Part shown: piece after piece, positions 3,960-40,525 of the stretch
Position numbering within the stretch: position 1 is the first letter of the stretch
Layout: each line of letters begins with the position of its first letter
Sequence record: PZ509022.1
Length of the DNA: 64,000 bases
From: a phage
Strand: one strand, 5' to 3'
Position numbers and translations under genes: made by a program
The notes under the pieces: generated by a model
Databases searched by the model: none
What the model was told of the DNA's origin: nothing
Seen by the model: the letters and a program-made list of their open reading frames with translations, nothing else

Positions 3960-4975
3960 TGTGTTGCCTCTACATATAACTGATTTGCATATTGAATAAG
4001 TGCTTCACGGTCAGAATCAGTGATGTCTGGAATTGCATTAATGTATTCTTCCATCAATGTCTGAAGAGATTGAACTTCAACTTCTTCACTGTCATCTGAC
4101 TCGACAGAGTTATCAATTTTTGACACAACTCGTAATGAATGCACAACTTTTTCTAGTTCAGATTCGAACTTCGTCAGATTTTTGTCTACCTCAGTTACTA
4201 TAACACGTACTGATAGATTTGTAAAATCTTTATAGTCAATTTTTCCTTTAAATGGATAATGAATTCTACGATGCCAGGTAGTATTGTTTGGAATAAATTC
4301 CATTCGTTCTGTTTCTGTATCAAACATCCAGAACCCACGAGGGTCATTCTCGTCACCTGCAGTTAGTGTCCATGGTGTCCCAATGTATCTGACGTTTGCA
4401 GCCTCAGAGATAGTATGGAAGTGACCAGACCACACCTCTTTATAAGTCTTAAGGAAATCAGGTTCAAGACCGTGAGATTTCATTCCTTTATAAAAATAAA
4501 ATCCATTCAGTTCCCAGTGACCAACACAAAAAGAAGCAGATGAAGTTTTGATGTGCTCAAGAATTTCACCAGTATTTTCTTCGCACATCCAAGGAATTAA
4601 ATCAATTAAACATCCGTCAAAATCGACTGTAGTAGGCTTATCATATACTTTAACATTAGGATATTTAGCCAAAAGCTCAGTAGAAGCATTTGGGGTTAAA
4701 GTATTTTTAAAGTGCATATCATGGTTTCCTACAACAGTATGTAGGGTAATACCAGCATCATCAAGCATTTGAACTATTTCACGGGCGAACTCCATAGTTT
4801 TATGTGTGATTGCTTTTCGCACATCAAAAATATCGCCATATTGAATCCATGTAGTAATTCCATTTTTCTTAGAATATTCTATTGCTTGTTTAATTCCATC
4901 CAACTGAATAGATTGAACCCACTCATCATCGGCTTTAACGCCTAAATGCCAATCACCTAAATTTAAAATTTTCAT
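3956..4975 (-). CDS. 47: Recombination endonuclease subunit gp47 (Mre11/SbcD-like phosphoesterase)
   Basis: 339-aa ORF; metallophosphoesterase motifs (GDWH, GDIFD, GNHD, GHFH). Confidence 0.95.
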   Translation of the reverse strand: MKILNLGDWHLGVKADDEWVQSIQLDGIKQAIEYSKKNGITTWIQYGDIFDVRKAITHKTMEFAREIVQMLDDAGITLHTVVGNHDMHFKNTLTPNASTELLAKYPNVKVYDKPTTVDFDGCLIDLIPWMCEENTGEILEHIKTSSASFCVGHWELNGFYFYKGMKSHGLEPDFLKTYKEVWSGHFHTISEAANVRYIGTPWTLTAGDENDPRGFWMFDTETERMEFIPNNTTWHRRIHYPFKGKIDYKDFTNLSVRVIVTEVDKNLTKFESELEKVVHSLRVVSKIDNSVESDDSEEVEVQSLQTLMEEYINAIPDITDSDREALIQYANQLYVEATQ

Positions 4976-38035: not shown

Positions 38036-38130
38036 TTAAAATCCTTGAAATAATTTATCGGTTGGTTATTAATTATTTATTACTTTGTTACTATCCGTAA
38101 CAGCGTTATCCGAGTGATTCAAACTAAAAA

Positions 38131-38152
38131 GCCCCAACCTTTCGGTCGGGGC
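38131..38152 (-). terminator. Rho-independent terminator (minus strand) ending the tRNA/stable-RNA transcription unit
   Basis: GCCCC-GACC-GAAA-GGTT-GGGGC hairpin followed on the minus-strand RNA by UUUUU. Confidence 0.55.
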
Positions 38153-38460
38153 TAAGCCTTGCGGCAACCTTGTCGGGGTTCCACCTGCTAAGGCAAGTGT
38201 TTGTACGAAACGCCGGGATTCGAACCCGGTTATTAAGCAGTTGACGCTACTCAATATTTTTAAAAGGCCATATCTCGACCATATCCGAACGTTCCGTCAA
38301 AAACGCTACTCGGCTTACGGCAAAGATATTTCCTCGAATCGATAATTCGGTGCGCCGTTTCTGCTGTGATGTAAGGGGATATTAACAAATCGTAAAGATT
38401 TGTTAAGACCAGTCCTTACTCAGGGAACATCAGTCCGACGACTTACCGGTAGCGACCCGG
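38153..38460 (-). ncRNA. Structured non-coding RNA region, possibly T4-type stable RNAs (species 1/2); exact ends undetermined
   Basis: No credible ORF; T-arm-like element CCGGGTTCGAATCCCGG, GNRA hairpins (GCCGCAAGGC); sits where T4 carries rnaC/rnaD next to the tRNAs. Confidence 0.35.
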
Positions 38461-38464
38461 TTTC

Positions 38465-38815
38465 TTAATATTCTTTTAAAGCATCAATCTGTTCACGGCG
38501 TTTACGCCATAAATCAATTGCTTCATACGCAGATTCAGCATTTCGAATTAGACGGCATTTATATAAAGACTCGTGATTTTGATATTGCGTAGATAACGTA
38601 ATTTTATCTAAAAGGTCTTTACGTTCAAAGTATTCGTAACCATCTAAGCCAAATGAACGATTTTTGAGAAATTGCCAATGACCATATTCGTTTTCGACAT
38701 AAACATAATCCGCGTGTTGATAAAGCAAATTAATTACACGTTCAGAAATAACAGTGTCATTGTGATTAAAATAAAATGTTAAATCATGAACTACTAAATA
38801 AACATTACCTTTCAT
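38465..38815 (-). CDS. Hypothetical protein
   Basis: 116-aa ORF starting 16 nt downstream of tRNA-Arg. Confidence 0.55.
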   Translation of the reverse strand: MKGNVYLVVHDLTFYFNHNDTVISERVINLLYQHADYVYVENEYGHWQFLKNRSFGLDGYEYFERKDLLDKITLSTQYQNHESLYKCRLIRNAESAYEAIDLWRKRREQIDALKEY

Positions 38816-38831: not shown

Positions 38832-38907
38832 TGGTCGAGGCAGTAGGGATCGAACCTACGACCTAGGACTTAGAAGGTCCTTGCTCTTCCTTCTGAGCTA
38901 TGCCCCG
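38832..38907 (-). tRNA. tRNA-Arg (anticodon UCU)
   Basis: Hand-folded 76-nt cloverleaf: acceptor CGGGGCA, anticodon loop CTTCTAA, T-arm GTAGG-TTCGATC-CCTAC, encoded CCA. Confidence 0.8.
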
Positions 38908-38911
38908 TAAT

Positions 38912-38987
38912 TGGGGTGACCGATGGGAGTCGAACCCATGACTACGAGAATCACAATCTCGAGTTCTACCAACTGAACTACGGCCAC
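38912..38987 (-). tRNA. tRNA-His (anticodon GUG)
   Basis: Hand-folded 76-nt cloverleaf: acceptor GTGGCCG, anticodon stem CGAGA/TCTCG, loop TTGTGAT, T-loop TTCGACT, CCA. Confidence 0.7.
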
Positions 38988-39081
38988 ATTAATACCTACT
39001 CCAACAATCAAGATGTCTTCACACGAAATTAAGAGAAGAGTGATCAGTTCAACCCCGATAATCGCGTCAAGTAGATATTAA

Positions 39082-39097
39082 TGTGACAATTGTCACA
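39082..39097. promoter_or_regulatory. Perfect 16-bp palindrome TGTGACAATTGTCACA (CRP-consensus-like half sites TGTGA-N6-TCACA)
   Basis: Read directly in the spacer between tRNA-Asn and tRNA-His. Confidence 0.3.
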
Positions 39098-39101
39098 AAT
39101 T

Positions 39102-39176
39102 TGGCGGACGTGATAGGATTCGAACCTATAACCAATCGCTTAACAGGCGATCGCTCTGCCATTGAGCTACACATCC
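39102..39176 (-). tRNA. tRNA-Asn (anticodon GUU)
   Basis: Hand-folded 75-nt cloverleaf: acceptor GGATGTG, anticodon stem ATCGC/GCGAT, loop CTGTTAA, T-loop TTCGAAT, CCA. Confidence 0.7.
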
Positions 39177-39180
39177 AAAT

Positions 39181-39267
39181 TGGTGGGGAGTGATGGAGTC
39201 GAACCACCCGAGTCGCAATGACAATGGATTTACAGTCCACACCGCTACCTCTACGGGATAACTCCCC
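39181..39267 (-). tRNA. tRNA-Tyr (anticodon GUA), type II with long variable arm
   Basis: 87-nt: acceptor GGGGAGT, anticodon loop CTGTAAA, long variable arm, T-loop TTCGACT, CCA. Confidence 0.6.
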
Positions 39268-39280
39268 TTAATTCTTAATT

Positions 39281-39355
39281 TGGTGGCCCTGGGTGGAATT
39301 GAACCACCATCTGGCGATTATGAGTCGCTTGCTTGAACCTTCCAGCTACAGGGCC
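39281..39355 (-). tRNA. tRNA with CAU anticodon (Met, or Ile if lysidine-modified)
   Basis: 75-nt: acceptor GGCCCTG/CAGGGCC, anticodon loop CTCATAA, T-arm GGTGG-TTCAATT-CCACC, CCA. Confidence 0.6.
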
Positions 39356-39356
39356 T

Positions 39357-39432
39357 TGGTGCTGATTGACGGAATCGAACCGCCGACCTTCTCATTACAA
39401 GTGAGTTGCTCTACCTACTGAGCTAAATCAGC
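39357..39432 (-). tRNA. tRNA-Thr (anticodon UGU)
   Basis: 76-nt: acceptor GCTGATT/AATCAGC, anticodon loop CTTGTAA, T-loop TTCGATT, CCA. Confidence 0.7.
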
Positions 39433-39437
39433 AAAAC

Positions 39438-39527
39438 TGGCGGAGGCGATAGGATTTGAACCTATGAGTCGCCGGAGCGACTGCCGGTTTTCAAGACCGG
39501 TGCATTAAACCACTCTGCCACGCCTCC
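39438..39527 (-). tRNA. tRNA-Ser (anticodon UGA), type II
   Basis: 90-nt: acceptor GGAGGCG, anticodon stem CCGGT/ACCGG, loop CTTGAAA, long variable arm, T-loop TTCAAAT, CCA. Confidence 0.75.
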
Positions 39528-39530
39528 AAA

Positions 39531-39538
39531 TATTTATA
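39531..39538 (-). promoter_or_regulatory. Late-promoter-like TATAAATA box (minus strand) at the segB 3' end / tRNA-Ser 5' junction
   Basis: Plus strand tatttata at 39531-39538, about 4-11 nt upstream of the tRNA-Ser 5' end. Confidence 0.35.
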
Positions 39539-40184
39539 TATTGTTAATTTGATTTAGAATTCTTTTTGCTTGAGTATGACTTACACCAATATGCTTAGCA
39601 TATTTAGATAATTCACCACGCTTAGAAAAATCATATAATTTAGAAATTTCTATTCTTCTTTTTCTTTCATCCGCCGAAACTTTTGCTTCGTTTGCTTTTG
39701 CTATTTTACGTTTAGCTTCTTGAGAGTGAGTTTTACCAGCAAAGCCATTCTTCATTAATCCATTTGAAGACCATCCTTTTAATTTTCCGTTAGAATGTGC
39801 CTTTTTAACACCCAATGAAATTAATTCGCGTTGCTGGTCTGTCATAGGATAATTATTTATATGATCCCATCCACCTTCACCACCAAGTTTTAAATTATAC
39901 ACATCTGGTCTATTTAAAAACTCTTCCGTGACAATATTTTTCTCGGCTTCAAGCATAGATTCTTTATCATCAAAATACTCTAATATTTCTTTAGAAAAAT
40001 TTTCTATACCATACTTATCTTGGGCTCTTTTTAATAATTTACCAGAACCCATATATCCATCATCTAAATTTTCGGTAGAATGCACACCAATATAAATTTT
40101 ATTATTAATTTTATTTGTTATTTTATAAAGATAAAAATGCATATCAGTCCCTAATAAAGAACTGAGCGTCTCACGACGAGTCAT
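39534..40184 (-). CDS. segB: GIY-YIG homing endonuclease SegB, inserted within the tRNA cluster
   Basis: 216-aa ORF; N-terminal GIY-YIG motif (YLYKITNKINNKIYIGVHS); occupies the gap between tRNA-Gly and tRNA-Ser as segB does in T4. Confidence 0.85.
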   Translation of the reverse strand: MTRRETLSSLLGTDMHFYLYKITNKINNKIYIGVHSTENLDDGYMGSGKLLKRAQDKYGIENFSKEILEYFDDKESMLEAEKNIVTEEFLNRPDVYNLKLGGEGGWDHINNYPMTDQQRELISLGVKKAHSNGKLKGWSSNGLMKNGFAGKTHSQEAKRKIAKANEAKVSADERKRRIEISKLYDFSKRGELSKYAKHIGVSHTQAKRILNQINNI

Positions 40185-40187
40185 AAA

Positions 40188-40261
<74 letters not shown>

Positions 40262-40266
40262 CAAAT

Positions 40267-40353
40267 TTGGTGCGAGAAGTGGGACTCGAACCCACAAGGA
40301 AATCATTCCGCAGCATTTTAAGTGCTGTGCCTTTACCAATTTGACCATTCTCG
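40267..40353 (-). tRNA. tRNA-Leu (anticodon UAA), type II
   Basis: 87-nt: acceptor GCGAGAA, anticodon stem CAGCA/TGCTG, loop CTTAAAA, long variable arm, T-arm GTGGG-TTCGAGT-CCCAC, CCA. Confidence 0.8.
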
Positions 40354-40354
40354 C

Positions 40355-40427
40355 GCTGGGAATAAAGGACTCGAACCTTTGCATCCTGGAATCAAAATCC
40401 AGTGCCTTACCAACTTGGCTAATTCCC
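40355..40427 (-). tRNA. tRNA-Gln (anticodon UUG), CCA not encoded
   Basis: Acceptor TGGGAAT/ATTCCCA, anticodon stem CTGGA/TCCAG, loop TTTTGAT, T-arm AAAGG-TTCGAGT-CCTTT; 1-nt spacer to tRNA-Leu (dimeric precursor arrangement). Confidence 0.75.
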
Positions 40428-40525
40428 AATTATTAACAAAGGCTCTCAAGCAAGAACCCTTGATGATAGAGGGTATTAATCAGTGCGATATGAGTTAATA
40501 ATAACAAATAATTCTTAAAGCATAT

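Follow-up and report, generated by a model that had tools for sequence, protein, structure and literature searches.

The species 1 and species 2 RNAs of the bacteriophage T4 transfer RNA (tRNA) operon have been known since the 1970s. Modules resembling part of a tRNA also occur in the tRNA-like domain of transfer-messenger RNA (tmRNA), in the bacterial YrlA Y RNA and in mascRNA-type 3' modules, where they serve processing or mimicry. In T4, RNAC was detected by Northern blot as a discrete transcript, and both T4 RNAs were classed as late (PMC9697503). Here we characterize homologues of the T4 genes rnaD (species 2 RNA) and rnaC (species 1 RNA) at 38125-38468 on the minus strand of a 64,000-nucleotide (nt) stretch of phage DNA (sequence record PZ509022.1), the whole of which is referred to as the window. 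Judged from its sequence, the source is an RB69-like T-even phage, Mosigvirus-like in type. The rnaD-rnaC-terminator module is an already known element of T-even phages, and its presence in an RB69-like phage is ordinary.

Identity and layout of the rnaD-rnaC module

A blastn search of 38040-38480 (minus strand) against 50,697 phage records matched 806 of them, with at least 80% of the query covered in 333. The matching records were mostly T-even phages of enterobacteria, with the best match in ECO07P1 (98.4%) followed by RB69 (97%). When 38125-38468 was aligned with T4 record X03016, it was found to be 87-98% identical to DNA labeled there as 'species 2 RNA' (4615-4734), 'species 1 RNA' (4741-4877) and 'pot. 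stem-loop structure; pot. terminator'. Identity to T4 was 98.5% for rnaC, 86.8% for rnaD and 97.5% for the trailer plus terminator, values in the same range as those of the tRNA genes common to the window and T4 (89-100%, with tRNA-Arg excepted at 63%). It was also noted that rnaD and/or rnaC are annotated as non-coding RNA ('small, stable RNA') in RB3, T4T and T4 strain 147, and that the RB69 record carries no annotation in this region. The identity of the locus as T4 rnaD plus rnaC is therefore close to certain, and the statement in an earlier note that T4 carries its species 1 and 2 RNAs at this location was borne out. That this identity holds together with the status of both as structured, stable RNAs embedded in a tRNA operon is highly probable.

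By alignment, the region reads as the distal end of the tRNA operon (ten tRNA genes at 38832-40428, all on the minus strand; ARAGORN, window), with rnaC as the last RNA gene, after rnaD and before the terminator on the tRNA strand. The locus is composed of two separate RNA genes plus a conserved trailer and terminator, rather than the single block described in the earlier note, and it extends slightly beyond the 38131-38460 given there. Its components are as follows, with bit scores taken from covariance models R1 (rnaC) and R2 (rnaD).

38348..38468, minus strand: rnaD homologue (T4 species 2 RNA), about 120 nt, 86.8% identity to T4 X03016, 155 bits with R2
38342..38347, minus strand: spacer AAUUAU between rnaD and rnaC, 6 nt, the same as in T4, with U at rnaC position -1
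38205..38341, minus strand: rnaC homologue (T4 species 1 RNA), 137 nt encoded, 174.5 bits with R1
38154..38204, minus strand: conserved 3' trailer with two small hairpins, one of them GCAA-capped, recognized by identity to T4
38125..38153, minus strand: predicted intrinsic terminator of the tRNA operon, from a terminator scan and 'pot. terminator' in T4 X03016

Each segment folded markedly better than its shuffled versions (z = -3.85 for rnaD, -4.42 for rnaC and -3.98 for the trailer; 0/200 shuffles as good for each). Together with the covarying folds of relatives presented below, these values uphold the structured non-coding RNA that had been proposed here. The block's only open reading frames (ORFs) were a TTG-started frame of 61 amino acids (aa) at 38069-38254 and a TTG-started frame of 42 aa at 38260-38388, both of which cut across RNA helices, in keeping with the previous judgment that no credible ORF is present.

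The earlier note had placed about 330 base pairs (bp) of non-coding DNA downstream of tRNA-Arg. The non-coding block stood, but it does not follow tRNA-Arg directly, since a 116-aa ORF at 38465-38815 (minus strand) separates tRNA-Arg (38832-38907) from rnaD. The dimeric-precursor arrangement, with the 5' end of rnaD directly after tRNA-Arg, is thus absent from the window. The TAA stop of the ORF (38467-38465) falls within the stretch homologous to the 5' end of T4 rnaD, and an ORF between tRNA-Arg and rnaD was also found in RB69 and several viral contigs. Its product belongs to PHROG 3355 (unknown function) and is a homologue of RB69ORF150c. The intervening ORF is a difference of arrangement and no ground to exclude rnaD homology; because T4 has no ORF at this place, the 5' end of rnaD would be formed differently here than in T4.

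At the distal end, the strong hairpin and U-run previously reported were recovered as a 10-bp, G+C-rich stem (7 G-C pairs) with a GAAA loop at 38153..38126 (minus strand), followed by UUUUU counting the stem-closing U. This pattern was unique in the window and gave 0 matches in 100 shuffles; as a G+C-rich hairpin with a U-run directly after it, placed where a transcription unit ends, it is a predicted intrinsic terminator. A GCC-GCAA-GGC hairpin lies in the trailer just before it, and these two hairpins account for the GNRA-capped helices that had been described. The trailer is also kept in Dhakavirus MX01 and in the Gaprivervirus-type phages TH55 and pEC-M719, all of which lack rnaC. As a separate observation, six related loci (L013, L015, L021, L012, L018 and L027) have a further copy of the terminator hairpin sequence AGCCCCGACCGAAAGGTTGGGGCTTTTT about 600 nt downstream, past the next gene; the window holds a single copy.

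Covarying folds of rnaC and rnaD

We sought to characterize the structures of both RNAs by comparison among relatives. The rnaC gene of the window is identical to T4 X03016 4741-4877 at 135/137 nt and 100% identical to RB3 rnaC. In a first MAFFT alignment of 14 sequences from six genera, the RNAalifold consensus showed changes on both sides in 22/42 pairs. Once a loop-loop helix was included, the model had 97.7% of cells paired on this alignment and two-sided changes in 22/46 pairs, with 0/500 shuffles as good and slid controls at 37-50% paired. A pattern scan of viral contigs for rnaC gave 113 matches, mostly by chance; R1 selected 10 true homologues among 90 pattern-matched contigs, and these were the 10 newly fetched loci that passed the model, the re-search with R1 having covered newly fetched loci only. 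Together, these contigs and further GenBank phages brought the total to 27 distinct sequences, which represent Tequatrovirus, Mosigvirus, Gaprivervirus (VR7), Karamvirus, Winklervirus, Gelderlandvirus, Kanagawavirus, Moonvirus and Marfavirus. Across these 27 sequences from about nine genera, 95.8% of cells were paired and 27 pairs had two-sided changes, in an alignment that was itself fitted to the model.

For rnaD, 22 distinct sequences were compared, a second covariance model (R2) was built and a second count was made on 19 sequences. Pairing was 83.6% and then 86.3% (19 sequences), with two-sided changes in 17 and 19 pairs, respectively, and 0/500 shuffles as good. Conserved, covarying secondary structures are thus very likely for both RNAs. 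The earlier note had pointed to compensatory changes among T-even phages as the check on its proposal, and to a lack of conserved structure as counting against it; many such changes were present in rnaC and rnaD alike.

The fold of rnaC is a four-way junction of a terminal stem, a long arm, a second arm and a T arm, located as follows.

38335..38341 (CGAUUCG) with 38212-38206 (CGUUUCG), minus strand: acceptor-type stem, 7 bp (comparative)
38265..38334, minus strand: long arm, rnaC positions 8-77, with apical loop UUGACG at 38300-38295 (comparative)
38231..38256, minus strand: second arm of about 10 bp with 6-nt loop CGUCAA at 38246-38241 ('pot. stem-loop structure' in T4 X03016)
38213..38229, minus strand: T arm CCGGG-UUCGAAU-CCCGG (canonical in the window)

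The T arm begins one nucleotide after the second arm, and the acceptor-type stem stacks on it and is followed by a discriminator position, occupied by U137 (38205). Of the 27 distinct sequences, 9 have A-U and 18 have G-C at acceptor pair 3, and the middle pair of the T stem is U-A (14), G-C (10), A-U (1) or U·G (1), so that both pairs covary. Two U·U mismatches in the acceptor stem are invariant, as are its remaining pairs. The sequence encoded after the terminal stem is U-CCA in the Marfavirus clade and U-ACA in the others, which would fit a tRNA-type 3' end. Two-sided changes were frequent in the three upper helices (3-5) of the long arm (16/18 pairs) and in the stem of the second arm (8/9 pairs). 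The long-arm sequence is wholly replaced in the Gelderlandvirus, Kanagawavirus and Marfavirus types with its pairing preserved. A non-canonical T loop, UGCAUNC, was found in Winklervirus-like rnaC.

From this examination, rnaC is tRNA-like at one end only, and the remainder of it is not. The T-arm-like element CCGGGTTCGAATCCCGG that had been singled out is present at 38229..38213 (minus strand); a tRNA-like T arm accordingly exists in rnaC, and rnaD has no tRNA-like part at all. The earlier failure to fold a complete cloverleaf was reproduced, since ARAGORN made no tRNA or tmRNA call in 38125-38468, Rfam gave no tRNA match there, and the second arm carries a loop of 6 nt above a stem of about 10 bp. 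The suggested covariance-model search was run against Rfam 15: nothing in the block reached the gathering score, there is no family for either RNA, and at E<=10 the only match was a 16.6-bit tRNA-Sec echo over the 3' part of rnaC (T-arm region). Neither an ARAGORN tmRNA call in the window nor an Rfam tmRNA match indicated the tRNA-like domain plus tag-peptide frame of a tmRNA.

An alternative, more tRNA-like fold of rnaC was considered in which the internal CGGAACG (46-52) pairs free of mismatches with CGUUUCG. It was rejected because a U-to-C change in the 3' strand gives A·C with the internal partner, whereas the 5'-terminal partner changes from A to G and keeps the pair, and because the Gelderlandvirus and Marfavirus types have unrelated sequence at the CGGAACG site. 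A comparable fold with an internal start is apparently behind the 96-nt ARAGORN call in one relative (L028).

The loops UUGACG and CGUCAA of rnaC are fully complementary, and the loop-loop pairs are 100% complementary in the 27 sequences. The sole variation across the 12 loop columns was found in four Marfavirus-clade sequences, which have UUGGCG and CGCCAA (A-U to G-C). The 4-bp stem under the UUGACG loop is CGUU/AACG, GUAU/AUGC, GUAG/CUGC or ACGU/ACGU by lineage; because this stem differs in every lineage, the hexamer is held in a loop.

In rnaD, a 5' hairpin (P0) is followed by a rod of P1, P1b, a CCCUG element and P2, with the following positions.

38445..38461, minus strand: P0, stem ACCGG/CCGGU with a 7-nt loop (two-sided changes in 4/5 pairs, 19 sequences)
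38353..38440, minus strand: rod (comparative)
38440-38436 with 38357-38353, minus strand: P1, 5 bp (comparative)
38431-38426 with 38365-38360, minus strand: P1b, tandem G·A/A·G and then U-A, G-C, U·G and U-A (comparative)
38425-38421, minus strand: CCCUG element (invariant in 22/22 and 19/19 sequences)
38422-38367, minus strand: P2, variable hairpin (comparative)

The window rnaD is 86.8% identical to that of T4 and 96.6% to that of RB69, with the scaffold of P0, P1, P1b and CCCUG identical. The counterpart of P0 in Jiaodavirus-type rnaD is UCAGAA/UUCUGA with a 4-nt loop, and the Karamvirus version, UUGGAA/UUCUGA, has one mismatch. The last P1 pair changes from G-C to C-G in three contig sequences. 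In T4-type rnaD, P1b opens with tandem G·A/A·G and continues with N-N', G-C, U·G and U-A, where N-N' alternates between U-A and A-U. Other forms of P1b are UGUU/AGCA, UUUAAU/AUUAAA in Karamvirus and UGAAU/AUUCA in a viral contig (L052). The tandem G·A/A·G is restricted to the T4-type, and a canonical kink-turn was rejected because the flanking strands mismatch the geometry of a 3-nt bulge and the G·A pairs are Watson-Crick in other genera. The three Cs of CCCUG would most simply form a bulge.

The P2 hairpin was found in at least six unrelated versions among relatives. One related locus (L013 3787-3916, minus strand) has the same flanks and scaffold as 38341-38474 (minus strand) of the window with an unrelated P2; L006, L014 and L020 also bear on this exchange. 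The L013 type of P2 recurs in Gaprivervirus-type pEC-M719, and the window's type in TH55 of the same group. From these sequences, P2 seems to behave as an exchangeable cassette upon a fixed scaffold, with types that recur across genera. At its 3' end, the window rnaD reads ..GGCGCACC-G, compared with ..GGCGCACC-A in T4. A conserved CCA end for rnaD was rejected, as the window has CCG and relatives have CCC, CCU or CAG.

Distribution and tRNA-cluster context

In relatives, rnaC and rnaD lie within tRNA clusters, mostly at most 10 nt from a tRNA gene, and the 6-nt spacer between rnaD and rnaC resembles the 1-10 nt gaps of adjacent tRNA genes in such clusters. In Karamvirus and Gelderlandvirus, rnaC is situated between tRNA-Trp and tRNA-Gly (7-nt and 6-nt spacers in myPSH1140), in Winklervirus immediately before tRNA-Trp, and in viral contigs L052, L081 and L106 directly after tRNA-Met. 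In most cases, the 5' end of rnaD lies next to the 3' end of a preceding tRNA, a few nt from tRNA-Asn (Karamvirus, Jiaodavirus), tRNA-His (L081, L106) or tRNA-Met (A73); about 36 nt lie between tRNA-Asn and rnaD in Marfavirus F48. In one contig (L082), tRNA-Asp directly follows rnaD.

Judged by these arrangements, rnaC and rnaD are apparently separable modules that occur jointly or alone across Tevenvirinae genera. In Dhakavirus MX01 and some Gaprivervirus-type phages, rnaC is missing and the trailer follows rnaD, either directly or after an ORF. Within the short loci compared, Winklervirus and Gelderlandvirus have rnaC only. Karamvirus, Marfavirus, Kanagawavirus and Moonvirus carry both RNAs, separated by hundreds of nt. 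It was also noted that Escherichia phage A73 (Vequintavirinae), which is outside Straboviridae, carries an rnaD homologue (L009 886-1000; 107 bits) directly after tRNA-Met, which therefore suggests horizontal transfer of the rnaD module alone.

In two relatives (L028 7816-7911; L086 8491-8585), ARAGORN reported a 95-96-nt 'tRNA-Phe' or 'tRNA-Met' over the 3' two-thirds of rnaC, and many GenBank phage records (F48, PG7 and others) place 'hypothetical protein' coding sequences (CDSs) or 'tRNA-Met' over rnaC or rnaD. These tRNA and CDS calls are likely annotation artefacts.

Several further features of the tRNA region were recorded. The tRNA-Arg(UCU) gene of the window (38832-38907, minus strand) has 63% identity to T4 tRNA-Arg (L001 1422-1496), tRNA-Leu, Gly, Ser and Thr being 96-100% identical between the two; by sequence, the window tRNA-Arg gene seems to be a replacement, not a drifted copy. 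Between tRNA-Gly and tRNA-Ser, a 216-aa ORF at 39534-40184 (minus strand) with GIY-YIG-like motifs (..KIYIGVHS.., ..YMGSGK..) probably encodes a SegB-like homing endonuclease in the position-class of T4 segB. A perfect 16-bp palindrome, TGTGACAATTGTCACA, is located at 39082-39097, within the 114 nt that separate tRNA-Asn from tRNA-His, and might serve as a site for protein binding or for an endonuclease. Copies of the late-promoter motif TATAAATA lie at 39538, 39861 and 40774 (minus strand), within or upstream of the cluster; a late promoter just upstream of the module was rejected as a candidate, the motif count in the window being at chance (12 vs 10.6 expected). Lastly, Karamvirus and Marfavirus loci (L022 ~1575-1640; L024 ~1082-1150) share a conserved non-coding stretch after rnaD, ..GTTAATGTGTTAA.AAAGATTATATCTGTGCA.., a candidate for a third RNA conserved in the tRNA region, which is absent from the window.

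Proposed processing, possible role and relation to known RNAs

A minihelix of acceptor stem and T arm is the minimal shape for RNase P, 3' exonucleases and the CCA-adding enzyme. From homology, the structures, the operon context and tRNA biology, we infer that rnaD and rnaC would be co-transcribed with the tRNAs and excised by the host enzymes of tRNA maturation. RNase P would be directed to its site by the acceptor/T-arm minihelix of rnaC, with U at -1, and a cut at rnaC +1, after AAUUAU, would create the 5' end of rnaC and simultaneously free the 3' end of rnaD. Next, 3' trimming enzymes would remove the trailer and terminator as far as the helix, with the minihelix as their stop. In most phages, 3' maturation of the upstream tRNA would set the 5' end of rnaD. 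We consider such tRNA-type processing of rnaC and rnaD somewhat better than an even prospect.

As to function, both RNAs may be stable, structured protein-binding RNAs, for example tRNA-shaped decoys or scaffolds to which a host or phage factor binds, a proposal that we put forward tentatively and with low confidence. Protein binding is favored over antisense action because nearly all conserved nucleotides take part in structure, and because one hairpin is hypervariable on scaffolds that do not vary. The same rnaD single-nucleotide polymorphism (SNP) arose in three lines adapting to the semi-permissive E. coli host ECOR34 (PMC12685909). This convergence is a hint of host-specific relevance, short of proof. 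A more specific picture, in which rnaC is a tRNA-end mimic with its body locked by a loop-loop kissing helix and rnaD is an invariant protein-binding scaffold (tandem G·A, CCCUG) bearing a hypervariable cassette hairpin, is speculative and rather doubtful. If it were true, both RNAs might serve as decoys for counter-defence or host takeover, in an arms race against host factors able to recognize tRNA-like RNAs; this idea arises because P2 is swapped on identical scaffolds, rnaD has spread to Vequintavirinae and the rnaD SNP is convergent. As separable modules, rnaC and rnaD need not act together.

A number of observations weigh against these readings. The 3' CCA of T4 rnaD is not kept in relatives, and the upstream-tRNA route to the rnaD 5' end is impossible in the window because the ORF intervenes. 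The mature ends in T4 differ by 1-2 nt among records (rnaC 137 vs 139 nt; rnaD 120 vs 119), and because of this disagreement post-transcriptional CCA addition can only be inferred. The non-canonical T loop of Winklervirus-like rnaC implies that a complete tRNA elbow is dispensable. Two of the alignments (A8 and A7) were fitted to the model and are thus biased toward structure. Reviews and omics papers state the roles of the T4 RNAs as unknown (PMC3014915, PMC9697503), and our literature search found no functional study of the species 1/2 RNAs. For the intramolecular kissing interaction between the two rnaC loops, the loop changes represent a single evolutionary event, and the arms are very unequal (~25 bp vs 10 bp), so that contact between the loops would require a bend in the long arm. 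On these two grounds, we hold the putative kissing interaction to be evenly balanced.

Among other explanations, one is that the RNAs are trans-acting base-pairing regulators (small RNAs, or sRNAs, of Hfq/ProQ type) or a cis-regulatory leader for neighboring genes. The block ends in a Rho-independent terminator hairpin and U-run like many sRNAs, the T4 RNAs have been listed as 'small regulatory RNAs' (PMC9697503), and a regulatory role has been suggested in the paper that reported the convergent rnaD SNP in the three ECOR34-adapting lines (PMC12685909). However, the mature T4 species 1 RNA stops before the trailer and terminator, so the terminator is outside the stable RNA. Conserved nucleotides are nearly all in helices or in the mutually complementary loops, and the conserved stretches that could be single-stranded are very short (only CCCUG and an AAAAU linker). 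The downstream gene has its own spacing and differs from phage to phage. A host origin or antisense target was rejected as well, as blastn of the block found no match in 5,426 complete E. coli genomes. We regard regulation by base pairing or as a leader as unlikely.

It is very unlikely that the two genes are decayed tRNA genes carried in the cluster without a function of their own. This explanation would draw on the acceptor-type stem and canonical T arm of rnaC, the 16.6-bit tRNA-Sec echo, the 95-96-nt ARAGORN 'tRNAs' over rnaC in two relatives and the placement of rnaC in tRNA slots. Against decay, rnaC is as conserved as working tRNAs (98.5% identity to T4), its non-tRNA arms have been maintained by compensatory changes in about nine genera, and the invariant U·U mismatches, UUGACG/CGUCAA loops and CCCUG indicate selection, while rnaD lacks any tRNA feature. 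An origin of rnaC from a tRNA gene is possible.

That the rnaD-rnaC precursor is a self-cleaving RNA appears extremely improbable. In the 1980s, the Apirion laboratory reportedly observed self-cleavage of a T4 'p2Sp1' precursor; a literature search on p2Sp1 gave nothing relevant. The strongly conserved internal-loop sequence is typical of catalytic cores, and CUGAUG...GAAAC in rnaD superficially resembles a hammerhead core, but no ribozyme family of Rfam 15 matched, even at E<=10. The hammerhead candidate was rejected on several counts: a stem I is missing between the presumed cleavage site and CUGA, U stands in place of A at position 9, and the supposed core is replaced by plain Watson-Crick pairs (UUUAAU/AUUAAA) in Karamvirus and Jiaodavirus.

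Finally, although both small frames exist (61 aa at 38069-38254; 42 aa at 38260-38388, minus strand) and 'hypothetical protein' CDSs have been drawn on homologous DNA (e.g., F48 vBKpnF48_274), coding for small proteins is barely credible, since both frames start with TTG, the shorter crosses the rnaD/rnaC boundary, the longer spans the 3' part of rnaC, the trailer, the terminator hairpin and the U-run, variation follows base pairing (27 and 19 pairs kept through two-sided changes), and the rnaC long arm and rnaD P2 are swapped for unrelated, similarly folding sequence that would disrupt any frame.

Returning to rnaC and rnaD as structured RNAs of the tRNA operon, we found no prior description in the literature, as far as our search reached, of the structure models, the loop covariation, the U·U and CCCUG features, the P2 cassette or the modular distribution. 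The models and distribution are refinements of a known RNA pair and no new kind of element. The covariation-supported models make a question of function that is about 50 years old testable through designed mutations. They are also of use for annotation, as rnaC and rnaD are unannotated or lie under spurious features in RB69-type and many other records, and neither has an Rfam family.

Compared with canonical tRNA (RF00005), rnaC shares a 7-bp acceptor-type stem stacked on a 5-bp T stem, a UUCGAAU loop, a single discriminator nucleotide, placement in the tRNA slots of operons and, in one clade, an encoded CCA. It differs in lacking a D arm and a 7-nt anticodon loop, in its length of 137 nt, in the two invariant U·U mismatches of its acceptor stem and in starting with C1-G72. 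By analogy with tmRNA, YrlA and mascRNA-type modules, rnaC may be viewed as an acceptor/T-arm mimic grafted on a non-tRNA body, through which enzymes acting on tRNA would set its ends and make it more stable. It has neither the tag reading frame nor the pseudoknot ring of tmRNA (no ARAGORN tmRNA), and YrlA-type matches at E<=10 in the Rfam-searched stretch fell only on tRNA genes at 38882-38944, with none in rnaC or rnaD. To our knowledge, a kissing-loop body has not been described for tmRNA, YrlA or mascRNA-type modules. The closest known system is that of T4, in which rnaD begins 1 nt after tRNA-Arg and ends in CCA; in the window, the 116-aa ORF lies between the two genes and rnaD ends in CCG. 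The window's tRNA set is larger than that of T4, adding His, Asn, Tyr and Met (Met replacing T4 'Ile') and lacking Pro. T4 and the window have in common full-length homology of rnaC and rnaD (98.5% and 86.8%), their location on the same strand as the tRNAs, and the order of rnaD, 6-nt spacer, rnaC, trailer and terminator at the end of the tRNA operon.

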